Made by a program: the position numbers and the translations under genes. The notes beneath the pieces were generated by a model, which ran no database searches, was not told the origin of the DNA, and saw only the letters and a program-made list of their open reading frames with translations. Source: Candidatus Hermodarchaeota archaeon (GTDB taxonomy: Archaea; Asgardarchaeota; Lokiarchaeia; Sigyniarchaeales; SOKP01). From it: a stretch of DNA of 20,319 nucleotides. Numbering within the stretch: position 1 is the first letter of the stretch; the number at the start of each line of letters is the position of its first letter. The stretch spans positions 1-20,319 of the forward strand of contig JBHLLO010000029.1 of assembly GCA_048885535.1 (NCBI GenBank), in the 5' to 3' direction. Shown here one piece after another: positions 3 through 15,484 of the stretch.

Positions 3-620
3 GAATTTACCGGCTCTTACAGTTTCATCACTTGTGAATAGAAGTTTTGAATTCGAATCTCCAATTCTATCTTTTACGGCTTCTTTTGAGAATCCACCAA
101 ATACAATTGAATGTATGACTCCGATTCTTGCGCAAGCTAACATAATGATGGCTAATTCAGGTATCATTGGTAGCCAGATAGTAACTCTATCACCTTTCTT
201 TAAGCCATGATTTTTCATTGCATTTGCTACTTTATTAACTTCCTTCAATAACTCGTTATAAGTGTACCTCCTGACTTCTCCTGGTCTATCAGCTTCCCAT
301 ATTAGTGCTATTTTATCACCATTGCCCTTTTTTACATGTCTATCTAAGCAATTGTATGCAACGTTAAGTTTTCCACCAACAAACCACTTTCCTGGGAATA
401 AGTCAGTCTTTTCCCATACTTTTTCATAAGGTTTAAACCAATCCAGTGATTTAGCTTGTTCTGCCCAAAACTCTTCCATATTATCAATAGATTTCTTGTA
501 TAACTCTTTGTATTCTTCAAATGACATTCCAGTTTTAGCAAATTTCGAGTTTAGTTTAACAGGATCGAAGATACGGGTTTCAGTAAGGATACTTTCCATC
601 TTCTTATCTTCTTCTGACAT
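3..620 (-). CDS. acs: Acetyl-CoA synthetase (AMP-forming acetate--CoA ligase), N-terminal ~206 aa; runs off the left edge
   Basis: Not in the ORF track; translated by hand from the ATG at 620-618: MSEEDKKMESILTETRIFDP...YKKSIDNMEEFWAEQAKSLDWFKPY...KWFVGGKLNVAYNCLDRHV...KIALIWEADRPGEVRRYTYNELLKEVNKVANAMKNHGLKKGDRVTIWLPMIPELAIIMLACARIGVIHSIVFGGFS. These are the standard Acs N-terminal motifs, and the frame is open to the window edge. Confidence 0.95.
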   Translation of the reverse strand, partial: MSEEDKKMESILTETRIFDPVKLNSKFAKTGMSFEEYKELYKKSIDNMEEFWAEQAKSLDWFKPYEKVWEKTDLFPGKWFVGGKLNVAYNCLDRHVKKGNGDKIALIWEADRPGEVRRYTYNELLKEVNKVANAMKNHGLKKGDRVTIWLPMIPELAIIMLACARIGVIHSIVFGGFSKEAVKDRIGDSNSKLLFTSDETVRAGKF

Positions 621-690
621 AAAATTTCACAATTTTGAATTTCTTATTTTGTATCTAATCTAAGATTTACAAGGTTTTTTAATTCTAAGA

Positions 691-708
691 ATATATTAAA
701 GCTTTTTG
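691..708 (-). promoter_or_regulatory. Putative archaeal BRE-TATA promoter for acs
   Basis: Minus strand reads CAAAAAGC-TTTAATATAT, a purine-rich BRE-like element directly followed by a TATA-like box about 70 nt upstream of the acs ATG. The AT-rich background lowers specificity. Confidence 0.4.
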
Positions 709-917
709 TTCGATCTTATATCACTTAAAGTATTTATGAATAAATGAACATAAGACCATCAACAAAAGAAATTCTAAATGATTTTTAAACATTTTATTTA
801 TAAATAATATATCAATCACTCAGTTGAGATTTCAAAAAAAGTTAAATGAATAGAGAAATAAATAATAGAAATATAGAACTTTTAAGTAACAATTAGGATC
901 GATTTTTGCTATTTATA

Positions 918-2828
918 ATGGAAAAAAAAGAATTATTAGATAAAGATTGGCGAGTTAAGTGGAAGAATAAGGAAATTACCGCAAAAGAGGCAATTAAAAA
1001 AATTATACCTGGAAATCGTGTTTTTATTGATACTGCATGTTCTGAGCCCCAAGCTCTAACGAATCAACTGATAAAATCTTCTGACAGTTTATTAGATACA
1101 GAACTGATTCATTTCCTGACTATTTTTCCCGAAAAATACTTTAAGGACAAAGCAGAAGATTTATTTAGACATAATGCCTTTTTTATTGGTAAAACTTTAA
1201 GAGAAGAGATCAACAAGGGGCAAGCAGATTATACTCCAATTTTTGCCAATGAAATTCCCTCATTATTCTTAACTGGAAGAAAAAATTGTGATGTAGCACT
1301 TATTCAAGTGACTCCACCTGATAGAAATGGTTTTTGTTCCTTTGGTACCAATATAGATGTTGCTAAACCAATTGCTAAGTCAGCTTATATTACAATTGCA
1401 GAGATTAATCCCCAGATGCCCAGAACCTTAGGGAATAGTTTCATCCATATGAAAGAAATTGATTTTTATATATACAATGATACTCCATTACTAGAATTTC
1501 ATTTCAAGGAGAAAAATCCAGAAGTAATGGATCGTATTGGTAGAAATGTTGCTGATTTAATTGAAAATAAGTCAACAATACATATAGGGAATGGATATTT
1601 ACCTAATGCTTGTTTGAAGTATTTAATGAATAAAAAGGATCTTGGAATGCACAGCCATTACATCACAGATAATATAATACCCTTAATAAAAAGTACCGTT
1701 TTAACCTCACGAAGAAAGAATTTTCACCCTGAAAAGATTGTTACGAGTTTTGCATTAGGTACCAAGAAATTATTTGACTTTATTGACAACAATCCATATA
1801 TTGAGTTTTATCCATCAGATTATGTGTGTAATCCTAAATATATTGGTATGAATAAAAAGATGGTCTCAATAAATCAAGCACTACAAATAGATTTAACAGG
1901 ACAAGTTAATGCATCTACTAAGGGATATGATTTTTATTCTGGAATAGGAGATACTGTTGATTTCATGCGTGGAGCCGCATTTTCTAAAGGAGGTAAACCA
2001 ATAATAATATTACCTTCAACATCTAAAAGTGGAGAGCAATCTAATATAGTTGCTCATTTGGACGAGGGAGCAGGCGTTATGTTATCTCGAGCTGATGTTC
2101 ATTATGTTGTAACCGAATGGGGTGTGGCATATTTACATGGTAAAACTATAAGAGAACGTGTCCTTGAGTTAATTTGTATTGCTCATCCTAAATTTCGAGA
2201 ACAGTTATTAGAACATGCTAAAAAATTAAATTACATCTTTTCTGACCAAATTTTACCCTGTGATGAAAATGGCAAAATTTGTCGATATCCTTCTGAGTAT
2301 GAAACATCATTTACAACTCGAGATAATATAAAGGTAAGTATAAGACCAGTAAAACCAACAGATGAACCTTTATTAAAAGAACTGTACTATTCCTTGAATG
2401 AGAGAGATAGATATTTGAGGTTTTTTGAAATTAGAAAGGAGTTTACACATTCCAAGACACAAAATGAAGTTAATATTGATTATAATAAGATTTTTTCGAT
2501 AGGTGCTTTTGTAGGAGAAATTGGGAAGGAGGTAATGGTAGGAAATGCTGCCTATTATTTGAATCCTAATAATAACATGGCAGAATATAGTTTTTTAGTC
2601 AGAGAAGATTATCGAGGAAAGGGCATAGGGTCGTATTTGTATCATGTTCTAATAATAATCGCAAAAGAAAAGGGAATTAAAGGCTTTTTTGGAAACATCC
2701 ATGTTCAGAATAAAAAGACAGTTCAAATTATAGGAACAGGGGGTTATACTAAAATTACTCCCCCCGAAGATGGTGAAAAAGAATTGTTTTATGAGGTCTT
2801 TTTTGATAAGGAAAATTCAATGGAGTAG
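918..2828 (+). CDS. Acetyl-CoA hydrolase/4-hydroxybutyrate CoA-transferase-like domain (degenerate active site) fused to a C-terminal Pat-type GNAT N-acetyltransferase
   Basis: CoA-transferase family motifs: ADYTPIF, DVALIQVTPPDRNGFCSFG, IAEINPQMPRT.G, SINQALQIDLTGQV, DFMRGA..SKGGK.II.LPST, VVTEWG.AYL.GK.IRER..LI.IAHP.FRE.L. GNAT motifs: IRPVKPTDEPLL...RYLRFF, AEYSFLVREDYRGKGIG. ATG at 918 preferred over TTG at 906, with a TTTTAAGT box at 880-887. Confidence 0.9.
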   Translation: MEKKELLDKDWRVKWKNKEITAKEAIKKIIPGNRVFIDTACSEPQALTNQLIKSSDSLLDTELIHFLTIFPEKYFKDKAEDLFRHNAFFIGKTLREEINKGQADYTPIFANEIPSLFLTGRKNCDVALIQVTPPDRNGFCSFGTNIDVAKPIAKSAYITIAEINPQMPRTLGNSFIHMKEIDFYIYNDTPLLEFHFKEKNPEVMDRIGRNVADLIENKSTIHIGNGYLPNACLKYLMNKKDLGMHSHYITDNIIPLIKSTVLTSRRKNFHPEKIVTSFALGTKKLFDFIDNNPYIEFYPSDYVCNPKYIGMNKKMVSINQALQIDLTGQVNASTKGYDFYSGIGDTVDFMRGAAFSKGGKPIIILPSTSKSGEQSNIVAHLDEGAGVMLSRADVHYVVTEWGVAYLHGKTIRERVLELICIAHPKFREQLLEHAKKLNYIFSDQILPCDENGKICRYPSEYETSFTTRDNIKVSIRPVKPTDEPLLKELYYSLNERDRYLRFFEIRKEFTHSKTQNEVNIDYNKIFSIGAFVGEIGKEVMVGNAAYYLNPNNNMAEYSFLVREDYRGKGIGSYLYHVLIIIAKEKGIKGFFGNIHVQNKKTVQIIGTGGYTKITPPEDGEKELFYEVFFDKENSME

Positions 2829-2877: not shown

Positions 2878-3690
2878 ATGAGATTTAAGTATACTGATTA
2901 TCATATTCATTCACGTAGTTGGAGTACAGACGTTGGTGAAGATGGTCCTGTTTTTGATGATTATATTAGGATTGCAGAAGAAGAACGTATTAATATTTGC
3001 TTTTTGGAACATTTCGAACTTTATTACGTTGAAAATGACAAATTAAATCCATTTCATGATGGTGGGATCAATAATTACCTTGAGGAAATTGATCTACTTA
3101 AGGAATCATATGGTTTTATTTTAGGAGGCCTTGAGATTGAGTATTATAAAGACAGGGAAGTGGAATTAATGGAATTCATGGACGATTATGGTAAAGAATT
3201 AGATTTTATTGGAGGATCAATTCATGAATGGATTATTCATTATCCTATAACAACTAGAGAGGGATTGCTAGAGTTGATGAAAAAATTATCTCTAAAACAA
3301 ATTATTGACGATTATTTTGAAGTTTTTAACAATATGATTGCATCTAAAATTTTTAAAAGTGTATGTCATATTGATACGATATTTCGCTATATCAATGAGA
3401 ATGATATTAAACCTCCAGAAGATTGCGATATTTCAGATAACAGGATTTTAGAGTTAGGGCGTGCTTGTATGCATAATAATATTCAGATAGAATATAATCT
3501 ATCTGGTAAAAAATTTCCAATAGGGCGAACATTTCCTTCTAAAAAAATTGTTTTAAAACTTTTAAAAGAAGGGGCTTCATTTTTTGTTGGTTCAGATTCT
3601 CATTCAGTAGATTTTTTTATAGAACAAATTCCTGAAATAAAAAAGGCGTATGATTCATTTAATCTAATTAAAAGAAGTGGAAGATTTTAA
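2878..3690 (+). CDS. hisK: PHP-family phosphoesterase, histidinol-phosphatase (HisJ/HisK)-like
   Basis: Metal-ligand motifs in the PHP order: DYHIHS, FLEH, GLEIEY, DFIGGSIH, CHID, GSDSH. The substrate is inferred from family resemblance only. Confidence 0.75.
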   Translation: MRFKYTDYHIHSRSWSTDVGEDGPVFDDYIRIAEEERINICFLEHFELYYVENDKLNPFHDGGINNYLEEIDLLKESYGFILGGLEIEYYKDREVELMEFMDDYGKELDFIGGSIHEWIIHYPITTREGLLELMKKLSLKQIIDDYFEVFNNMIASKIFKSVCHIDTIFRYINENDIKPPEDCDISDNRILELGRACMHNNIQIEYNLSGKKFPIGRTFPSKKIVLKLLKEGASFFVGSDSHSVDFFIEQIPEIKKAYDSFNLIKRSGRF

Positions 3691-3700
3691 ATAGTAAAAA

Positions 3701-4417
3701 ATGGAGTCAAGAGAATTACTGAATCATTTACATCAATGGGACCAAAAGATTATCTTAAAATATAATGGAATAGGAGGTAAACCAATCACATACATTTTAA
3801 AGGTTATTTCTTTTTTTGGGAGGGAGACAATCTGGTTAATTTTAATGGCTTACTTCTTATTTATTTGGTATGATCCTAATTTATTTATCCATATATCTAG
3901 CACATTCTTAATTGGACTTGTAATTATTGCCTCTATTAAGAGAGTTTTTGATAGATCTAGACCATTTGAAAGTTTAACAAGTATAAATATCCTCGAGAGA
4001 AGACCCTACTCGAGAAGCTTCCCATCTTGGCATGCATACAATATGATTTCCCAAGGATTGTTAATTGGCTATTTAATGAATTCTCTATTAATAACAATTT
4101 TGTGTGTGATATTTGCTGTTATTGGTGCATTTTCAAGAATTCAATTAGGAGTTCACTATCCAACTGATGTTATTTTTGGATTCTTAATAGGTATAGGGGG
4201 ATTTCTTTTATCGATATTTTTGGTTTCTCCTTTACTTTTTAATTTAATAAAGCTAATAGAAGCATATATACCGTATCAAGTTGAATATTACAGGATTAAT
4301 CCGTGGTTATTTGATAATCTTTGGTATGTTATCTTATGTGTAATTGTATTTAGTTTAATCTTTCTAATTTCAATTCATAAAATTATTAAAGATTTTTTGA
4401 TAAAATCAAGGAAGTAG
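3701..4417 (+). CDS. PAP2-family membrane phosphatase (lipid/polyprenyl phosphate phosphatase-like)
   Basis: C1 KRVFDRSRP, C2 SFPSWH (variant of PSGH), C3 SRIQLGVHYPTDV, plus several hydrophobic transmembrane segments. Starts 10 nt after the PHP gene. Confidence 0.9.
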   Translation: MESRELLNHLHQWDQKIILKYNGIGGKPITYILKVISFFGRETIWLILMAYFLFIWYDPNLFIHISSTFLIGLVIIASIKRVFDRSRPFESLTSINILERRPYSRSFPSWHAYNMISQGLLIGYLMNSLLITILCVIFAVIGAFSRIQLGVHYPTDVIFGFLIGIGGFLLSIFLVSPLLFNLIKLIEAYIPYQVEYYRINPWLFDNLWYVILCVIVFSLIFLISIHKIIKDFLIKSRK

Positions 4418-4426
4418 AATTAGTTA

Positions 4427-5653
4427 TTATAAATTAAGTCGTTTTTTCTTATCAAAAAGTTGTTTTAATTCATCAAGAACTTTCAATCTAGAATCAGCAG
4501 GATTTGTTCGACTTTGAGATTGGTCAGGACTAGTTATACTAATTGGAATACCACTTTGTGCTACTTGAAAGGCTCCACTCTCAATTGCACTTAATCTAGT
4601 GTCAAGATCACTTAATTGCTTTGAAATACTTTCTGAAAGACGAATCACAGCATTCATAGTTTCTTCTAAAGTTTTACCTAAACCTTCTACCTTTTTTAAT
4701 GTTGGATTTGTCAAGGAATCTGTAGTTTTCATTATTTCTTTAATATATTTTGAAAATTGAGGTTCATTTGAAATCAAAGAATATATTGAAGTTAGATAGG
4801 CTTCATAATCAAAACCATATTGAGCCAATAATGTATTAATGTTATCTTTCAACAATTCTATACCTAATAAGATTTCAGGTTCAGTTTTTATATCTGGATC
4901 TACTTTATGGATATATATTACAATAAACGGATTTTCTTCTAATGTTGTTAGAATCTGTAGTATTTCTTCGAAATATTCAAATGATTCCGCAAATCTCTCT
5001 GAATCTTGAATATCAATAACATAAATTAATAAATCTATTTGAAGAAAGTACAGTTCCGGATGCTTCATGTATTTATTACGATATTGCTTTTGACCACCCA
5101 TATCCCAGATGAATACATCAAGTTCAGATTCTTCAGTTTTTATAAACTGCCGGTGTACTCCTTTAGTTGGTTTTAAATTTGCTAGCTCATCTATCCCTAA
5201 TCTTCCTCCATACTTGGTTAAGATAGCAGTCTTACCAGCATTATCTAAACCAATAATCATAATTTTTTGAGCTTTTTTCTCAAAAACTTCTTCTTGATCT
5301 TTTACATTAACCACAATTGAGCTAATGGTAATTGCTTTCTTTAGCTTTTTTTCTAATTCTGGATATGTTTGTTTAAGGTCCTCAATTTTTCTGTTAATTT
5401 CTATTTGTTCGTCAACACTCTTTTTCTTTATAGCTTCAAATGGGTCATCTCTGTTTATTTTTGATATTTCTTCTATGTTTGAGACGTTTAAGATCTCTTT
5501 TAAGAATTTTGAGATTTCTTTAGTGAAGAACTTAAATGAGTGGATAGGTAATTGCTTTATATCATCCAAAGTGTTTAATTTGCTTATTTTAGTTTCTTTT
5601 AGGTCCAAGAATTTCGAGAAGATAATTATAATATTAGAAATATCTGTTGACAT
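4427..5653 (-). CDS. Arf/Rag-like small GTPase with N-terminal HhH-like extension and C-terminal coiled coil
   Basis: G1 GLDNAGKT, G2 PTKG, G3 WDMGGQ, LLIYVID, G4 HKVD, G5 TSI. About 125 aa N-terminal extension and about 110 aa C-terminal extension with heptad periodicity. Confidence 0.9.
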   Translation of the reverse strand: MSTDISNIIIIFSKFLDLKETKISKLNTLDDIKQLPIHSFKFFTKEISKFLKEILNVSNIEEISKINRDDPFEAIKKKSVDEQIEINRKIEDLKQTYPELEKKLKKAITISSIVVNVKDQEEVFEKKAQKIMIIGLDNAGKTAILTKYGGRLGIDELANLKPTKGVHRQFIKTEESELDVFIWDMGGQKQYRNKYMKHPELYFLQIDLLIYVIDIQDSERFAESFEYFEEILQILTTLEENPFIVIYIHKVDPDIKTEPEILLGIELLKDNINTLLAQYGFDYEAYLTSIYSLISNEPQFSKYIKEIMKTTDSLTNPTLKKVEGLGKTLEETMNAVIRLSESISKQLSDLDTRLSAIESGAFQVAQSGIPISITSPDQSQSRTNPADSRLKVLDELKQLFDKKKRLNL

Positions 5654-6776: not shown

Positions 6777-9700
6777 TTATAGTTCTATTTGTTTTAACTT
6801 ATTCTCTTCTTCAAATAAAGGTAATATTTCTAGCATCTCATTAATTGGAGAAATATAATTATCAAGTTTATTCAAAATAACGTCCAGAATAAAATTTATG
6901 CATCTAATATAGAATGTATCTTCTACTAATCTTTTATTTAATCCAAGAGAATTTAAAAATTGATCCACATTTGATTTTATAATAAGTAAGGATACATTAT
7001 TCTTTATTAAAGCTAAACCATGTAGAAGGATTAATAATGAACTCGTAGTAAAATCTTTTCTTTTAGAAAGAGACATAGCAAGATCAAAATATAAGTTTCC
7101 AGTCAATTTCAAATTATTTTCTTCCAAAGCGGAGGTGACTTCTTTATAATAATATTTCTTCATAGCGTTACGTTTCTTTAGAAGATCATTTCTCTCTCTT
7201 TTTATATCGGGTAACTTTTGCCGTAAATTAGCAAAATTCTGTTCTCTTTGGACTGAATCAATGCTACGCTTTCCCAATTCTTCTCTTGAGATCAATTCTT
7301 TCTCTATCTCCTTAGGAGTCTCTTTAGGGATTAATGATTTCAAATATTCGCTTTCTGGTGTAAATAAAGCTAACTTTTCAATAAAAAGATTTAAACAAGT
7401 TTCTATTAATTTTTTCAAATCATTTTCAATCGCAAAGAAAAGTTCTGGCACAAGTTTAATTTCTGGTAGATCTTCTATGTTTGATTTATACTTTTCTAAT
7501 CTATTTAAATTATCATAATAAGCAGATTTAGCTACATTTATATCATTTTCCTTAACCATTAATAAACATCCAATTATTAGGCTAATTGATGCTTGTTTAT
7601 AGAATTTCTTTTCCATTAACTGTGGAACAACATCAATATAATCCATTGCGGCTGTTCGGTATTTTTTATTCGAAAGGTCCTCTAAAGCATATCTCCAATA
7701 TTGGTTTTTCATTAATTTTCTTTTAGCAATGTCAGATTTCTCTAATTGGATACTTTTGGCTAATTGAGTTATTTTTTCCTCCAAAACATCCATTTCTATC
7801 GGAGTACTTGAGATTTCTTTACCTTTTTCCGGTGCTTTATGCTTCTCCCCTAAATATTCATATAAAAGAGTTTCTTCTTCTTTAAATAAAGGTAAATTCT
7901 CAAAAAAATGTACATATTCCTTTAATCTAAATTTTTTATGTAGCTTATTTAAATCAATTAGATACTCAATTATAGTAATAGCAAATGTTTCTGATAATAA
8001 TCGAACTAAGCTAGAATAATCCTCCTTAATTTTCTTTAATCGTGGTTCTATTAAACTAAATTTCTCTTGCTTCAATAAGATAAGAGCAATTACTGCTAAT
8101 GATACTCCTGCCAGATTATATTGCCTAATATTAAATAACCGATTAATACTTTCTTCATATTTTTTAATTGCTCCTTCATATTCTCCAGATTTTAATAAGA
8201 GTAATGCATCTTCAAAATAAGCTCTTTTATACCCTTTTCTCTGTCTTAGTTCATTTTCTTTATCTATTAAAGCATCTCTTGCCTTCTTTTTGATAAGTGA
8301 AAGCCTTTCTATAAGGGATTCTTCCTTAAAATCCTCTTCTGCCTTCTTAATCTCAATAGCACTTTTTTCAGCTTCCAATTTTTCAATTTTCTTATTGATT
8401 TCTGCTTTAATGGCATTATTATCAATTCGATCGTTAATAGCATGAGCACCTGAAAGATTTCCGAGCTCAATGTATCTTTCAGCAATAATTCTATATATTT
8501 CATTGAGATCAATCTTAATCTTTTCTAAATAAGCGAGAGATATTTCAGATGCTTTATTTGTCAAATTTAAAGCACGTTCAATTCCTTGTAGATTATTTTC
8601 TGTGTCTAAAATTTGAAGGATTCTTGACTTTATCACTTCAATATATTCTTCACTGATTGTTTGTGCTTGTTCATATAATTCTTGTTCTCTATAAATTCGT
8701 ATTAAATTTTCATATATTCTTTCTAATTCACTGTATTTTCTTTCACTTTTTATCTCTTTTAATTGTTTAAGAATAAGCTGAAATTTTTTTATTAAATATC
8801 TTTCTTTTGTTAATTCAGTAAGTTCTGTAAATAATGGAATGAATTGAGTCATAGCCTTACCTATGAGTAAAGTGTCTAATGATTTAAATAAAAGTTCTTC
8901 TTGAATTTGTTCCTTCCCAATACTTTTTAAGAAGTTAGCTTGATTTTTTATTCGTTCAGCTGCTCTTATAAATTCATTACTTTCGATTAAAGCATTTGCT
9001 TCTTTGATTATTTTTTCATTTAAACTTGCTATTATTTTTAATTCCTCATCCAAAAATTCCTTTAAAACCTTAACTCCTTTTTCGAGATTCTCTTGTATTT
9101 CCTTCCTTCTTAGTTCTTTAGCTTCTTCCTCAACTTTATCCCTAATTTTAGTTAACTTCTTCTTTATTGATAAAGAATTTAATTTATTCATTAAATCAGT
9201 AGCCATTCCAAAATTTAATTCGTTAAGAAAAAGCTGAATTAATTCTTCGAGTAAATTATCAAGATTGGATTTTTTCACTCCATAAGATTCCCATAGATTT
9301 TCTATCTCATCATAAGAATATTTAGCGGAATAAATATCATTTTTATTAATCTGTAGTTCCAATAGTTTCTTCAGTATATCAACTTGTTTATAGGTAAATT
9401 TGTCTAGAATATCAAATAGTCCTTCTCTTTGATAGACCGTTATTGCCTTATAGATTTGATCTTTTGCCTTGTCTAATTTTTTACTTTTAACTAAAAAGTC
9501 AGCTGCGGCTAAAATCTTGTCATCAATCTCTTTCAGAATGTTAAGAACTTTTTGGTGAGGTAAACTGTTAAGAATTTTAAAAGAGTACTCAACTTTACAG
9601 GCAGATATCCAAGAATTGATAGCTAGTTTAAATGTCTCGTTTCTTAATTCTATATCCTTCAATTCTATTGTTGCCCATTGAGCTGCTGTTAAATATTGTT

Positions 9701-10508
9701 TGGCAGCAAGCTCATAATCTCTATTATTAAATAACTTGTTTCCCTCTAGTATGATAGATTCAGCATATAATTTCTTAAAGTTTTCAGATTTCTTTTTGTC
9801 TATATTTTGTAAAATCTTTGAGGCTTCAAGATATAGATTTTCTTTAGAAAAGAGTAGAGCAGCTTGCTCGCTAATTATATAAAATTCTGCCTTATTAAAA
9901 ATGTCGGCAATCATAGCAGCTTTTCGAATAGCTTGTGCCGCATAAAAGAAATTTTGTTTTTCATAGTATAAATTTGCTAACAATATAAAAATAGGAAATC
10001 GCATCCACGCATTTTCGATATTTAATGGAGTATCGCCTGTGATCATTGCCAAACATAAACACTGAAGGGGCTGATAGAATTCTCTTGGAGAAACATTAAC
10101 AAAAGCTTCTAATTGAGGATATTTTAACCACAAATTTTCTAGTAACTCATTTGTAGAAATAGGTATTATCCCGTCAAGATCATAATATAATATAACTGTA
10201 GGAATATCTCTTTTAACTGAGTCAATGATAGGTAAAATTAAATCAAAATATTCTAATTCTTCGTTGTTCTGTGGATTTAAAAAATAAATAATTCCATCAA
10301 CCATAGGGAGAATCTCATCAAAATTTGCATTTATCATATCACAAATAACTTCGACTTCTAGATTGCAAACATCTTCAAAAGCATTAATTTCTTTATACCA
10401 TAATAACGTGTTTTCCTTTTCTTCACCAGCTTCTATAAATGCGTTAGAAACAAAATAAGGAGTGTATTCAATATTCCCTAAAATTAAAGTCTTAAATATA
10501 TAACGCAT
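6777..10508 (-). CDS. Large alpha-solenoid (TPR/SNAP-like) protein with a degenerate N-terminal small-GTPase-like domain and three C-terminal ~175-aa repeats
   Basis: 1243-aa uninterrupted ORF. N-terminus has YIFKTLILG...DGIIYFLNP...DIPTVILYYD (Ras-superfamily strand pattern without GKS/T). TPR-like segments such as EGNKLFNNRDYELAAKQYLTAA. Repeats end in LPLFKEE / LALFTPE / LPLFEEE. Confidence 0.8.
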   Translation of the reverse strand: MRYIFKTLILGNIEYTPYFVSNAFIEAGEEKENTLLWYKEINAFEDVCNLEVEVICDMINANFDEILPMVDGIIYFLNPQNNEELEYFDLILPIIDSVKRDIPTVILYYDLDGIIPISTNELLENLWLKYPQLEAFVNVSPREFYQPLQCLCLAMITGDTPLNIENAWMRFPIFILLANLYYEKQNFFYAAQAIRKAAMIADIFNKAEFYIISEQAALLFSKENLYLEASKILQNIDKKKSENFKKLYAESIILEGNKLFNNRDYELAAKQYLTAAQWATIELKDIELRNETFKLAINSWISACKVEYSFKILNSLPHQKVLNILKEIDDKILAAADFLVKSKKLDKAKDQIYKAITVYQREGLFDILDKFTYKQVDILKKLLELQINKNDIYSAKYSYDEIENLWESYGVKKSNLDNLLEELIQLFLNELNFGMATDLMNKLNSLSIKKKLTKIRDKVEEEAKELRRKEIQENLEKGVKVLKEFLDEELKIIASLNEKIIKEANALIESNEFIRAAERIKNQANFLKSIGKEQIQEELLFKSLDTLLIGKAMTQFIPLFTELTELTKERYLIKKFQLILKQLKEIKSERKYSELERIYENLIRIYREQELYEQAQTISEEYIEVIKSRILQILDTENNLQGIERALNLTNKASEISLAYLEKIKIDLNEIYRIIAERYIELGNLSGAHAINDRIDNNAIKAEINKKIEKLEAEKSAIEIKKAEEDFKEESLIERLSLIKKKARDALIDKENELRQRKGYKRAYFEDALLLLKSGEYEGAIKKYEESINRLFNIRQYNLAGVSLAVIALILLKQEKFSLIEPRLKKIKEDYSSLVRLLSETFAITIIEYLIDLNKLHKKFRLKEYVHFFENLPLFKEEETLLYEYLGEKHKAPEKGKEISSTPIEMDVLEEKITQLAKSIQLEKSDIAKRKLMKNQYWRYALEDLSNKKYRTAAMDYIDVVPQLMEKKFYKQASISLIIGCLLMVKENDINVAKSAYYDNLNRLEKYKSNIEDLPEIKLVPELFFAIENDLKKLIETCLNLFIEKLALFTPESEYLKSLIPKETPKEIEKELISREELGKRSIDSVQREQNFANLRQKLPDIKRERNDLLKKRNAMKKYYYKEVTSALEENNLKLTGNLYFDLAMSLSKRKDFTTSSLLILLHGLALIKNNVSLLIIKSNVDQFLNSLGLNKRLVEDTFYIRCINFILDVILNKLDNYISPINEMLEILPLFEEENKLKQIEL

Positions 10509-10679: not shown

Positions 10680-11345
10680 ATGGCCTACATTGAACGTAAC
10701 TCGCATATAGTCGAAGCAAGAATGATTGAACAAATGGAGAAATCCTTTAAGCTAGGGCGGAAATTAATTGACACTGAATTAGATACAGGAATCTTAAATT
10801 TCATTATAAAACCAGTAGTAAAAACTTTTTATGACTATTGGACTCAAAATGACGCTCGGAAAGGTACATTGCAACAGATAAAAGTTACCTTAGAAGCAGG
10901 AAAAAAGTTGCTATCAGATTCTAATTCAAAGGATAAATTCAATGAGGTAATAGAGGATTACTTTCCGAAATATCTTAAAGCAGATCAAACAACGCATCAA
11001 TGCAGAAAATCTCATGGAAATTATGATAAATTAGTTGAAATAGCAAAAAAAACCTTTATTAATTACGTAAGAGAAGTCATAATCTTTTTAAGTATTAAAG
11101 AAGAGGTTAGAGATTATGGTGATCTCTGTAGAATTGCTTTTTCTAATAAAGAAGAGGCTCGAGTAAATTTAATAAAGCAATTAGATTACACAGATGAGGC
11201 GATAAGTTTAATTGAAGAGGATCCAAGTATTCTTAGCATTCCTGTAGCAAAGAGAATTATAGTTAAAGTATTAAGAAAAGGATTCGAAGAAACAAGGAAA
11301 GAATTTATACAAGCATTAGATGAAACTTATAATCATGAACATTAA
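10680..11345 (+). CDS. Hypothetical alpha-helical protein, tandem paralog 1
   Basis: 221-aa ORF aligning end-to-end with the next ORF (ERN...RM.EQ, DTEL..G.LN...KPVVK.FY.YW, NDARKGTL.QI, DQT..QCR..H, KVLRKGFE). Conservation at the protein level supports coding status. Confidence 0.85.
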   Translation: MAYIERNSHIVEARMIEQMEKSFKLGRKLIDTELDTGILNFIIKPVVKTFYDYWTQNDARKGTLQQIKVTLEAGKKLLSDSNSKDKFNEVIEDYFPKYLKADQTTHQCRKSHGNYDKLVEIAKKTFINYVREVIIFLSIKEEVRDYGDLCRIAFSNKEEARVNLIKQLDYTDEAISLIEEDPSILSIPVAKRIIVKVLRKGFEETRKEFIQALDETYNHEH

Positions 11346-11451: not shown

Positions 11452-12111
11452 ATGCATTATTTAGAGAGAAATTATGAGATTTTAGAGGAAAGAATGAAAG
11501 AACAGACTGAAATCTCTTTAAATTTTGGAAAGTCTTTATTAGATACTGAATTGGAATTTGGAGTATTAAATATTGTTGTTAAGCCTGTTGTTAAATCATT
11601 TTACCAGTATTGGGGTAATGATGCTCGGAAAGGCACATTAGAACAGATTAGAATAACTTTAAGTACTGCTAAAGAGCTAATAAAGAACAGTAATTACACA
11701 GAACAAAAATTTAATGAACTAATTAATGAAAATTTTAACATTTATCTTCAGAATGATCAAACAGATCGTCAGTGTAGAAGAAATCATAAAAATTACAATA
11801 ATCTCAAAGAAATTACGAAAAATTGCTTTATTACACAAGTTCAGGAGAGTATAATCCTGCTAAGTGTAAAGGATGATAATATCAGAAATTATAATGATTT
11901 ATCAAGAGCGGCATTTAAAACAAAAGAAAGAGCATTTAATGCCTTGAAAAGACAATTAGATTTTAATGAAGCCGGTATAGAAATTGTAGAGAAAGATCCT
12001 TCTATTTTAAAAGTACTAACTGGGAAGAATATAATCATAAAAGTACTTAGAAAAGGATTCGAATTAACTAAGGCAAAATTACTGGAGGAATTAGATATAA
12101 TATTTAATTAA
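11452..12111 (+). CDS. Hypothetical alpha-helical protein, tandem paralog 2
   Basis: 219-aa ORF, full-length paralog of 10680..11345 (roughly half of residues identical by eye). Confidence 0.85.
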   Translation: MHYLERNYEILEERMKEQTEISLNFGKSLLDTELEFGVLNIVVKPVVKSFYQYWGNDARKGTLEQIRITLSTAKELIKNSNYTEQKFNELINENFNIYLQNDQTDRQCRRNHKNYNNLKEITKNCFITQVQESIILLSVKDDNIRNYNDLSRAAFKTKERAFNALKRQLDFNEAGIEIVEKDPSILKVLTGKNIIIKVLRKGFELTKAKLLEELDIIFN

Positions 12112-13864: not shown

Positions 13865-15484
13865 ATGGTTAAAGAAAAGTTATTCATATGTCGTGAATGT
13901 GGATATGCATTTCCTAAGGAATTATCTCAACTCATCGATAGTCGAGTACAAGTATATTGTGAAATGTGTGGGACCCCATTTTCCTTAGAGGGAATAGAAT
14001 TTAAGAAACCAGAATTAAAACCACCAAAATTTGCTCTTCCTAAAATTCCGACGTATGATAAAGCTGATTCTAGCAAATCAAAATTAAGTAAAGCTATTAA
14101 AACGTTTAATAAATTCGCTTACTTACCCATACTGATATTCTCTGGCATATATATTGGTTTCTTATTTGAAATTTTTATTGATCCGAACAACTGGATTAAT
14201 ATTTTAACAAGCCATTTATCTCTTGGTATAGGTGGATTACTAATAGTTATTTATGATATTAGCCACATTTCACCTAGAATTGAAGGAGAAAGATATGATG
14301 CGATATTATTAGATGCTTTTTGTTTTGGTATTTTAGGTTGTATCATATATGGTGTAGGAGTACTTCTCTTGATTAAGGGTATATTAATCTTTATCTATGT
14401 AGCTTTAAATTCTAAGGAAAAATCCTACAAAGTATATAATTTTGGTTTAAAGTTGAAAAATTCGATAAATGAATTTTCTGCTAAAGCGGGAATAATAATT
14501 GCCTTTTTTGTTTTATATAGGTTCTCTCTTATAGATTTTGATGCAAAGTTCATAATAAACATAATTGATTTTATTTCTCAGAGAATTAGCAGTTTAGATC
14601 AATGGCTAATATTTACTATAACCTCAGTAATCTTAGCAATCTATTGTTTCATTCCATTACTAATTCTAATTATTGATGCACGAAGAAGGCCAAAATTACG
14701 AGAGAAAAAGATAATATCTTTTAAATGTGCTATTGGCACTATCATTTTAGGAATATTTGGGACAATCTTTTTCGCATTGGGAATATTTATTTTATTAAAA
14801 GGAATTCTTTTATTTTTCTTAGCCGCTGGAAAACCGTCAGATTATTCAGAGTTTCAAGAAACTGTCGAAATGGAGAAAGTTGAATATCCAGAATATAAAA
14901 AAGAAGAAAAACCTGAAAAATTAATCCCACCTGAAGATTATACTATCGCTAAAGAAGAGAAATCCGAAATTCCAGAAGAATTACCTAAAATCGAAATAAA
15001 GGAAGAAGCAAAATTTGAAATCGAAGAAGAAACGGAACAGATCGAAAAAGAGGAATTAGAAGAGGAACCCCCTAGAGAACCTAAACCAATCTCTAAGAAA
15101 CCGGATTCTGATATCTTAAGACTTCATGATTCATTATTGCCTGTAAAAGATGAAAAAGATAAAAAAATTGTAAAGGAATATTTTTCAAAAATTTTTACAG
15201 TTCTTTCAAAGGGTATCAGGAAACAAATAAATGGACTTAATATACCTAAAAAAGAGAAGAAAGAAATCCTAAAAGAATTAGCTTTCTTAACCAAAGAAGA
15301 ACAAATTAAATATCTTGAGGGTTTAGCAGAGTTATATAAAGAACTTCCAAAAAAATTAATAGAGAGAATAAAGAAACTTCCAAATGTAAAACCTCAGCAT
15401 TATGATAAAATCATTGATCAATTGAGGTATATGAATGCTGAGGAACAAATTAACTTTTTACAATTTTTAGAGGAAAATGCCTAA
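13865..15484 (+). CDS. Hypothetical membrane protein: N-terminal Zn ribbon, duplicated TM module, acidic/Pro linker, duplicated C-terminal helical module
   Basis: CRECG-x-CEMCG; about 7-8 hydrophobic segments; E/K/P-rich linker; two 47-aa-spaced repeats containing L..EEQI..L..L. SD-like GTGAT at 13854-13858. Confidence 0.85.
   Translation: MVKEKLFICRECGYAFPKELSQLIDSRVQVYCEMCGTPFSLEGIEFKKPELKPPKFALPKIPTYDKADSSKSKLSKAIKTFNKFAYLPILIFSGIYIGFLFEIFIDPNNWINILTSHLSLGIGGLLIVIYDISHISPRIEGERYDAILLDAFCFGILGCIIYGVGVLLLIKGILIFIYVALNSKEKSYKVYNFGLKLKNSINEFSAKAGIIIAFFVLYRFSLIDFDAKFIINIIDFISQRISSLDQWLIFTITSVILAIYCFIPLLILIIDARRRPKLREKKIISFKCAIGTIILGIFGTIFFALGIFILLKGILLFFLAAGKPSDYSEFQETVEMEKVEYPEYKKEEKPEKLIPPEDYTIAKEEKSEIPEELPKIEIKEEAKFEIEEETEQIEKEELEEEPPREPKPISKKPDSDILRLHDSLLPVKDEKDKKIVKEYFSKIFTVLSKGIRKQINGLNIPKKEKKEILKELAFLTKEEQIKYLEGLAELYKELPKKLIERIKKLPNVKPQHYDKIIDQLRYMNAEEQINFLQFLEENA

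Follow-up and report, generated by a model that had tools for sequence, protein, structure and literature searches.

The window analysed here, the 20,319-nt stretch formed by bases 1-20319 of contig C29 (JBHLLO010000029.1) and starting at contig base 1, comes from Candidatus Hermodarchaeota archaeon, an Asgard archaeon (assembly GCA_048885535.1; 3.09 Mb in 112 contigs, with 91.6% completeness and 1.9% contamination). Two genes lie head-to-head at its left end. One is the 5' part of acs (3..620, minus strand), 206 codons of a gene for an acetyl-CoA synthetase (Acs) of the AMP-forming type, in an open reading frame (ORF) that is still open at the contig start. The other (918..2828, plus strand), identified from its ORF and from Pfam, NCBIfam and PDB matches, encodes a protein of 636 residues in which a coenzyme A (CoA)-transferase-like domain is fused to a Pat-type GNAT acetyltransferase. 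They are separated by an intergenic region of 297 nt (621..917 on the ORF map), in agreement with the original prediction, made from the sequence alone, which had placed them in divergent orientation across about 300 nt. In the fusion protein, the transferase domain has lost its catalytic residues and the GNAT domain has kept its own; both are under purifying selection, and fusions of this family are associated with genes encoding Acs, ADP-forming acetyl-CoA synthetases (ACD) and HDAC-type deacetylases.

The fusion ORF spans 906/918-2828, and the ATG at 918 gives the 636-residue product, with the coding part ending at 2825. Pfam detected PF02550 at residues 21-188 (6.5e-27), PF13336 at residues 281-434 (1.2e-61) and the GNAT family PF00583 at residues 519-600 (3.1e-09). 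A set of 120 close homologues, 73-100% identical to the fusion protein, was collected; the named ones are from Asgard metagenome-assembled genomes, and databases give them unspecific names ("GNAT family N-acetyltransferase" or "acyl-CoA hydrolase/GNAT superfamily N-acetyltransferase"). We considered that the gene could be a decaying pseudogene, and rejected this, the ORF being intact and highly conserved. A fusion created by misassembly was also rejected, as the same 636-residue architecture was found on many independent contigs.

The N-terminal domain (residues 21-434, 978..2219, plus strand) resembles 4-hydroxybutyrate CoA-transferases according to both PDB and Pfam matches. Solved enzymes of this type matched residues 9-436 end to end (3eh7, 1.3e-113; 9vag, 1.8e-112; 2oas, 2.1e-96), and this region is about 40-47% identical, by eye, to class I CoA-transferases, a group that also includes 3gk7 and RipA (3qli). 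Homology extends across both halves of the fold, PF02550 and PF13336, which supports the family-I CoA-transferase fold that had been assigned to this domain in the original prediction. With the NCBIfam model of butyryl-CoA:acetate CoA-transferase (TIGR03948), the protein scored 254.9 bits against a cut-off of 674.8. Besides its fused GNAT, it differs from the class I enzymes in having His in place of the nucleophile Glu, GDT in place of GGQ and Cys304 in place of a conserved Asn.

The nucleophile motif, L-G-I/V-H-T-E in the solved enzymes, reads L-G-M-H-S-H in the window protein, and His247 (codon 1656..1658, plus strand) aligns with the Glu of HTE in 3eh7, 9vag and 2oas. In RipA, Glu249 has been named as the catalytic glutamate that family I CoA-transferases conserve, 3GK7, 3EH7 and 2OAS among them (PMC3180442). 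The distance from Gly224 to His247 is 23 residues, equal to that from the first Gly of the RipA loop G226-V227-G228 to Glu249, and therefore His247 occupies the place of the nucleophile. At this position, the 120 homologues have His (114), Tyr (4), Leu (1) or Phe (1), and none has Glu. The catalytic Glu of class I CoA-transferases is thus lacking, and with HSH and GDT standing against HTE and GGQ in the solved enzymes, the transferase site is dead, as the original prediction had claimed.

The second signature, G-x-G-G-Q-x-D-F in the solved enzymes, is G-I-G-D-T-V-D-F in the window protein. Its altered part, G342-I-G344-D345-T346 (1941..1955, plus strand, from the alignment), lies in the external oxyanion-hole region. 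Position 345 is Asp in 64 homologues and Glu in 56, whereas Gly is found in 84 of 94 Glu-bearing relatives; position 346 is Thr in 118 homologues and Ser in two. The GxGG(Q) loop, which provides the external oxyanion-hole amide, is not preserved. Two more replacements occur in all 120 homologues, namely Cys304 (codon 1827..1829, plus strand; homologue alignment), in place of an Asn kept by 76 of the 94 Glu-bearing relatives, and His222 (codon 1581..1583, plus strand), in place of a conserved Gln. In AarC, Asn347 was reported as the internal oxyanion hole and the amide of Gly388, called strictly conserved in the superfamily, as the external one; Glu, Asn and the Gly amide were placed within a few angstroms of the thioester (PMC4876117). 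The AarC alignment did not reach either position, and by spacing only, residue 304 would correspond to Asn347 and residue 345 to the Gly388 region. The AarC E294A variant was reported to be inactive (at most 0.0043 units vs 43), but still to bind both CoA and an analogue of acetyl-CoA, in a state that is fully closed (PMC4876117). Ligand binding may therefore survive when the Glu is lost.

We then compared conservation between 41 sampled members of the window's clade and 88 Glu-bearing cluster representatives. In the Glu-bearing set, conservation reaches 80% or more at 73 positions, of which the window's clade keeps 65; the eight changes are A156S, V159T, D217N, G218K, Q222H, E247H, N304C and G345D/E. 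Among the 120 homologues, the two halves of the transferase domain had mean pairwise identities of 0.79 and 0.80, similar to the 0.80 of the GNAT domain, and the linker one of 0.63. The ratio of nonsynonymous to synonymous substitution rates (dN/dS) was about 0.05 in both domains, which is a rough indication, as saturation of dS left no more than 7 and 10 of the 28 pairs for use. Since the CoA-transferase-like domain is conserved as strongly as the GNAT domain and shows a low dN/dS, these results suggest that it is functional in some way other than as a transferase.

The C-terminal part (residues 450-636, 2265..2825, plus strand) is a Pat-type GNAT with its N-terminal extension. Its PDB matches were PatZ (9it0/9isq, 7.8e-15), the GNAT domain of Streptomyces lividans PatA (4nxy, 7.8e-14; 4nxy/4u5y about 1e-13), Pat (4orf, 1.2e-07) and a 160-residue protein acetyltransferase (3f8k, 3.3e-06). 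The NCBIfam model of mycobacterial Pat (NF058543) was matched by the GNAT part alone, at 2.9e-13 and 49.4 bits for a cut-off of 460. Within AEYSFLVR, Glu556 (codon 2583..2585, plus strand) aligns with PatZ E809 and slPatA E123 and is the putative catalytic residue; it is invariant in the 120 homologues. YRGKGIG (2610..2630, plus strand), the acetyl-CoA pyrophosphate-binding loop, aligns with LKGLGLG of PatZ, and G569-I-G571 with PatZ G822-G824; G569 is present in 119 of the 120 homologues, and residue 571 is Gly or Ala in all of them. PatZ E809 and slPatA E123 have been reported as catalytic, and PatZ G822-G824 as the P-loop (PMC12184503). The extension also has its counterpart, IRPV..D....RYLRFF (within IRPVKPTDEP...RYLRFF, 2340-2426) aligning with FRPI..D....LYYRYF of PatZ. 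The three motifs named in the original prediction (the YRGKGIG loop, the Glu of AE-x-x-x-LVR and IRP..RY.RFF) were therefore all found again, its assignment to the Pat subtype held, and the GNAT domain looks catalytically competent. A search of the genome with the GNAT part gave two matches, both of them CoA-transferase-GNAT fusions.

The same GNAT subtype is found in PatZ/Pat of Escherichia coli and Salmonella (Type I) and in S. lividans PatA (Type II), and Acs is the classical substrate of PatZ/Pat. In both PatZ and the window protein, a large domain derived from an enzyme of acyl-CoA metabolism and devoid of its catalytic residue is fused to the GNAT. However, the accessory domain of PatZ has the fold of ADP-forming acyl-CoA synthetases and that of the window protein the class I CoA-transferase fold (PF02550/PF13336), and the window protein has 636 residues compared with about 880 for PatZ. 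The regulatory domains described for such GNATs are ACD-like, cAMP, ACT or NADP+ domains, or none, and in PatZ the binding of acetyl-CoA to the regulatory domain activates the GNAT (PMC12184503). The terms "CoA transferase", "CoA-transferase" and "hydrolase" are absent from the main text of that article, whose supplementary structure-based survey (Fig. S14), outside our scope, might bear on this point. The accessory domain of the window protein is of none of the described types and has a different fold, which places the protein outside the described Pat types.

The acs fragment matched ACAS_N (PF16177, 2.5e-22) and AMP-binding (PF00501, 3e-26) in Pfam, and acetate--CoA ligase NF001208 (7.9e-75) in NCBIfam. 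Because the contig ends inside acs, the target lysine of the window's own Acs is not visible, and a tblastn search of the assembly with the full-length paralogue as query found no C-terminal piece of an Acs-type gene on any contig; the genome has two Acs-type genes in its 3.09 Mb. The nearest complete sequence was an orthologue (locus L041), 91% identical over the 206 shared residues, with a full length of 660 residues and 955.6 bits with TIGR02188 (cut-off 724.95). Five full-length Acs orthologues of the genus carry PKTRSGK with Lys618, and LPKTRSGKIMRR (L611-PKTRSGK618-IMRR) is invariant in all 18 fusion-neighbouring Acs, nine Asgard and nine bacterial. The lysine for which the original prediction had suggested a search is thus kept in the orthologous Acs, but the 3' end of the window's own acs is absent from the assembly. 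In three other loci of the genus (L042, L044 and L045), the acs ORF beside the fusion is broken at differing points, to 425, 325 and 543 residues instead of 660, and several assemblies, the window's included, have a contig break inside or beside acs. Near-identical acs copies, frameshifts or insertions are possible causes of these interruptions and breaks.

The structure of a single complex was predicted, that of the window GNAT (residues 450-636) with the C-terminal domain (residues 524-660) of the L041 Acs. The interface score ipSAE (interaction prediction score from aligned errors) was 0.83, 0.83 and 0.82, compared with 0.00 for the best control, and passed a mark that was attained among solved complexes by 58 of 80, and among mismatched pairs by 2 of 110. 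At least 93% of the contacts were common to the runs, and the predicted local distance difference test (pLDDT) of the partner was at least 88. In the predicted contacts, Acs Lys618 meets GNAT residues 501-503, 558 and 593, and Glu556 meets Acs residues 614-616.

Gene neighbourhoods were analysed for 73 of 80 fetched fusion loci, seven (L083, L098, L104, L115, L116, L119 and L133) being left out as their fusion ORF was lost in the filter; the scan for related loci used an alignment of 19 closer rows. All 920 neighbouring ORFs were clustered without prior choice. The three top families were ACD (29 loci; CoA_binding_2, Succ_CoA_lig and ATP-grasp_5 in Pfam), Acs (25 loci, within 8 kb of the fusion) and HDAC-type deacetylases (PF00850, 17 loci), and at least one of them was found in 41 of the 73 loci. 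Smaller clusters were MFS transporters (8 loci), the GPR1/FUN34/YaaH acetate channel (5) and DRTGG proteins (5). The 25 loci with Acs cover 11 of 22 taxon labels, nine of them named phyla, and at least five gene orders. From the two Acs-type genes per 3.09 Mb, a random 18-kb stretch is expected to hold Acs in about 1% of cases, which is a rough estimate of our own and not a computed control. The conserved linkage with acyl-CoA synthetases on which the original prediction depended is therefore present. In the common bacterial order, ACD lies 5-20 nt upstream of the fusion, the HDAC gene about 130 nt downstream, and Acs and the acetate channel a few kb away. A tight ACD-fusion-HDAC operon was observed in L080, L081, L084, L089, L092, L093, L100, L103, L108, L112 and others. 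The one ACD neighbour that was tested (L081) has the catalytic His motif SHTGSL, aligned to PDB 8wzu, an ADP-forming 4-hydroxybutyrate--CoA ligase that was also its best PDB match (1.9e-166).

Within the genus, acs is upstream of the fusion and divergent from it in 11 of 13 loci, and Acs is near the fusion in eight of nine loci of the His247 clade; in one of these (L061), an HDAC gene follows 45 nt downstream. The synteny between acs and the fusion expected for Asgard genomes is thus kept in the genus and in the clade with the dead site, but not in six other Asgard loci considered below. Acs was also found near 16 of 62 Glu-bearing fusions, and the dead site and the link to Acs are therefore separate facts. 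The original prediction had regarded these two features as the notable ones; the link turned out to be family-wide, whereas the dead site is specific to the clade in its form and recurrent in the family.

The His247 form, at 77-96% identity, was found in 20 of 24 other genomes of the same genus that were searched, 18 of these from full-length rows, and the other families of the order have only forms with 39-53% identity. In the window's genome, a second fusion (contig C53:14991-16808, minus strand, locus L010) is 49% identical and has HSE and GGQ intact, and a stand-alone transferase on contig C107 has HTE and GGQ. The GNAT loop of the C53 fusion is WRNLGITR, with Thr where Gly or Ala is usual. 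A clade of Asgard paralogues (L067, L068, L069, L072 and L097) has a similar type of loop, WRGLGI[TSV]K, which ends in Thr, Ser or Val (as in WRGLGITK) and not in Gly or Ala. The two fusion paralogues of the genome may have degenerated in complementary ways.

To sample the family, the best 150 representatives of clusters at 50% identity were taken. They include 78 fusions, in which the nucleophile position is Glu (45), Asp (15) or another residue (18), and 64 stand-alone proteins, 49 of them with Glu; representatives that lack the Glu mostly lack the Asn and GG as well. The occurrence of the architecture in other anaerobes, mentioned in the original prediction, was confirmed, fusions being found in many anaerobic bacteria and archaea. 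Glu-bearing fusions of bacteria and other archaea share with the window protein the architecture, 42-51% identity and the acetate-node neighbourhoods, as does the C53 paralogue, but keep HTE/HSE and GGQ; we found none that has been characterised in the full-text literature. In a FastTree tree of 139 transferase domains, at least 14 changes between Glu and non-Glu states are needed among fusions, eight of them forced by strongly supported branches, and the window's clade is nested, together with the Glu-less cluster P0121, among Glu-bearing fusions. Transferase chemistry has therefore been lost repeatedly among the fusions, and not in the window protein alone. P0121, the nearest sister cluster, has Phe247 and Ser304, and the Cys/His set is therefore an innovation specific to the window's clade.

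Other variants were observed in the same sample. A well-supported clade of 12 stand-alone proteins (P0218, P0222, P0223, P0224, P0226, P0234, P0244, P0246, P0248, P0256, P0258 and P0261) has Gly or a gap in the nucleophile column and mostly His in the column of Asn304, and most of its members keep GGQ; these proteins may form a subfamily whose catalytic residue has shifted, or the pattern may come from an offset in the alignment. Five longer fusions of 955-1013 residues (P0126, P0127, P0152, P0170 and P0190) are all Glu-less and have about 330 extra residues, located at the N-terminus in P0126 and P0127 and at the C-terminus in P0152 and P0170. In the cultured Asgard archaeon Candidatus Lokiarchaeum ossiferum (locus L123, chromosome 2043049-2060911), the fusion has HSDS and GIGGLVDF, with Asp for Glu and the Gln lost, and the GNAT loop WRNKGLTT; neither Acs nor ACD nor HDAC was found within 8 kb. 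This protein could be an experimentally accessible relative.

The Pfam scan detected no deacetylase gene in the window, but three genes of the HDAC family and three of the SIR2 family lie elsewhere in the genome, so that the CobB/HDAC partner sought in the original prediction has candidates in the genome and none at the locus. The HDAC gene at C15:24124-25335 encodes a protein 58% identical to the HDAC encoded beside the L061 fusion, and it is the best match to the HDACs of the bacterial operons (36-37%). A comparable gene set is known in Bacillus subtilis, in which acsA is divergent from acuABC, AcuA is an acetyltransferase and AcuC a Zn-dependent deacetylase (PMC11255334). In the window, acs is likewise divergent from an acetyltransferase gene, at 297 nt, and in the fusion family an HDAC-type deacetylase gene often follows the acetyltransferase gene, as in the 17 loci mentioned above and in Asgard L061. 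In contrast, AcuA is a single-domain GNAT without a CoA-transferase-like domain, no AcuB-like gene accompanies the fusion, and no HDAC-type deacetylase gene adjoins it in the window, the candidate partner being that on contig C15.

We also inspected the spacer between acs and the fusion, and the genes downstream. Aligned with eight orthologous spacers, the spacer shows two conserved A/T-rich blocks. The block TTTTAAACATTTTATTTATAA (783..803, plus strand), near-identical in most of the nine aligned spacers, has the look of an A/T box and is a candidate archaeal promoter of the fusion gene with a TFB-recognition element (BRE) and TATA box; TTAAAGCTTTT (696..706, minus strand; spacer alignment) may belong to a promoter on the side of acs, and the two blocks may be the two divergent promoters. 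By eye, no common palindromic operator was apparent in 621-917 across the orthologous spacers. Fifty nt after the fusion, a gene (2878..3690, plus strand) encodes a PHP/HisJ-family phosphoesterase-like protein, which matched hisJ_fam of NCBIfam at 85.3 bits, slightly below the 90.2 cut-off, and whose orthologue matches Pfam PHP. It is followed, after 10 nt, by a gene for a PAP2 phosphatase-like membrane protein (3701..4417, plus strand; Pfam) and, in convergent orientation, by a gene for an Arf/Rag-like small GTPase of 408 residues with a long N-terminal extension (4427-5653, minus strand). The order fusion, PHP-like gene and PAP2 gene is kept in 13 of 13 loci of the genus, and the divergent Arf/Rag-like GTPase gene comes next in 12, which are all those whose sequence reaches so far. 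Further on, an ORF of 1242 residues (6777-10508, minus strand) and the ORFs at 10680-11345, 11452-12111 and 13865-15484 gave no Pfam match, at E <= 1e-4 for the first.

The explanation that we favour, and consider somewhat more probable than all others together, is that the fusion protein acts at the acetate node as a Pat-like lysine acetyltransferase with Acs as a substrate, in which the transferase-derived domain serves as a non-catalytic module for CoA-ester binding, dimerisation and positioning. The GNAT domain would use acetyl-CoA to acetylate the active-site lysine of Acs, the K of PKTRSGK, so that an abundance of acetyl-CoA would shut Acs down; removal of the acetyl group would fall to an HDAC-type deacetylase whose gene lies outside the window, or to a sirtuin. 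The first two thirds of the protein derive from a 4-hydroxybutyrate/butyryl-CoA:acetate CoA-transferase; in this Asgard clade, that part can no longer form the glutamyl-CoA intermediate, and strong selection keeps it as a non-catalytic module. Its likeliest role would be to bind CoA or acyl-CoA, to dimerise, and to gate or position the GNAT, in parallel with the inactive ADP-forming synthetase-like domain of PatZ. That Acs is the substrate, that the dead domain binds CoA esters, and that such binding regulates the GNAT, giving the domain its sensor role, are the parts of this explanation that we infer.

Several of our observations weigh against this explanation, and those that concern the substrate lend weight to another one, in which the GNAT is a protein acetyltransferase for which Acs is not the physiological target, and the adjacency of acs in the genus is inherited gene order. 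The targets would then be ACD or further acyl-CoA enzymes, or else chromatin or other proteins. Acs is absent within 8 kb of the fusion in 48 of the 73 loci, and ACD is both the commoner neighbour (29 of 73) and the tighter one, often at 5-20 nt upstream, so that Acs may not be the only or main substrate. About nine ACD-like loci occur in the window's genome, and PatZ has been described as modifying diverse substrates (PMC12184503). Six other Asgard loci (L067, L068, L069, L072, L097 and L123), five of which keep the Glu and one of which, L123, has Asp, lack Acs within 8 kb. Within the genus, the interval from acs to the fusion ranges between 276 and 5172 nt and contains other ORFs, and co-regulation through one common spacer is therefore not conserved. 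The predicted complex is also to be read with caution: the complex of the slPatA GNAT with the C-terminal domain of Acs has been solved (4U5Y; PMC12184503), so that the score shows likeness and not binding, and may stem from that known structure, and the Acs chain was the 91%-identical orthologue and not one from the window's genome. However, the linkage to Acs recurs in half of the taxon labels with different gene orders, far above our rough expectation of about 1%, even if the loci are related to one another and the counts therefore overstate independence; the loop PKTRSGKIMRR is invariant in the neighbouring Acs, and the predicted complex places it in the active site of the GNAT. Taking both sides together, we regard a target other than Acs as unlikely, although it is the alternative that we take most seriously.

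As for the N-terminal domain, the eight concerted changes in its pocket could equally abolish or retune the binding of CoA esters, and no experimental study of any member of the CoA-transferase-GNAT fusions was found in the full-text literature; a preprint of 2026 about histone acetylation in Asgard archaea uses neither "CoA-transferase" nor "hydrolase". Instead of being a non-catalytic module, the domain may have been rebuilt, with Cys304, His222, His247 and Asp/Glu345 forming a Cys-His-acid centre reactive towards acyl-CoA, or a metal site. An acyl group would then be transferred onto Cys304, for a thioesterase or for an acyl relay to the GNAT, or else a metal would be bound. The changes do not look like random decay, Cys304 and His222 being invariant, residue 345 always acidic and His247 present in 114 of 120 homologues, in a domain that is otherwise under strong purifying selection; the Glu-less sister P0121, with its Phe247 and Ser304, makes this set specific to the clade, and the AarC residues at the corresponding places lie close to the thioester (PMC4876117). 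On the other hand, the proximity of these residues in the window protein is presumed, the equivalence of Cys304 with Asn347 comes from spacing only, conserved replacements can equally fill and stabilise a ligand pocket, and six homologues have Tyr, Leu or Phe at position 247. We consider such a rebuilt centre improbable. The same low credence goes to a more far-reaching form of the idea, in which the pocket of the converted domain would still accept CoA thioesters, acyl-CoA would acylate Cys304 covalently and the S-acyl state would act as a chemical memory of the acyl-CoA pool, gating the GNAT, or would hand on the acyl group; the fusions would then be an undescribed and widespread class of lysine acyltransferases, using covalent CoA or acyl adducts to signal to the acetate node (Acs and ACD), with HDAC as eraser. 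Finally, the protein might not be a regulator at all, but a bifunctional metabolic enzyme combining a CoA-transferase or acetyl-CoA hydrolase with a small-molecule N-acetyltransferase. The homologue name "acyl-CoA hydrolase/GNAT superfamily N-acetyltransferase" and weak NCBIfam matches to ArsN1-type small-molecule acetyltransferases (9.7e-06) are in line with this, and, as 45 of the 78 fusion representatives keep the Glu, some members may be true enzymes. The window protein, however, has neither the nucleophile Glu nor an unaltered oxyanion-hole motif, its GNAT matches best the protein acetyltransferases PatZ, PatA, Pat and 3f8k and has their IRP...RY.RFF extension, and 17 of the 73 loci have an HDAC-type protein deacetylase gene next to the fusion, all of which makes a purely metabolic role very improbable for it.

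Control of metabolism by lysine acetylation has its textbook example in acetyl-CoA synthetase, which is acetylated reversibly. The gene described here probably encodes an undescribed kind of switch that turns acetate activation off. Its architecture is not unique to the window; what is new is that the active site has been rebuilt in a way specific to the clade and fully conserved there, and that the gene is tightly linked with Acs in Asgard archaea, a lineage of interest for the origin of eukaryotes. Being the only Pat-type GNATs found in the genome, its two fusions are prime candidates for metabolic protein acetylation in this organism. Beyond it, our data point to a further kind of accessory domain for the enzymes that write this modification, a CoA-transferase, widespread in anaerobic bacteria and archaea, with at least 78 clusters at 50% identity among the best 150 matches. 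The system is directly testable, since its gene neighbourhoods hold candidate targets (Acs and ACD) and an eraser (HDAC). Moreover, because Glu-bearing and repeatedly degenerated transferase domains form a natural series, the family is a good model for the passage from an enzyme to a regulatory pseudoenzyme.

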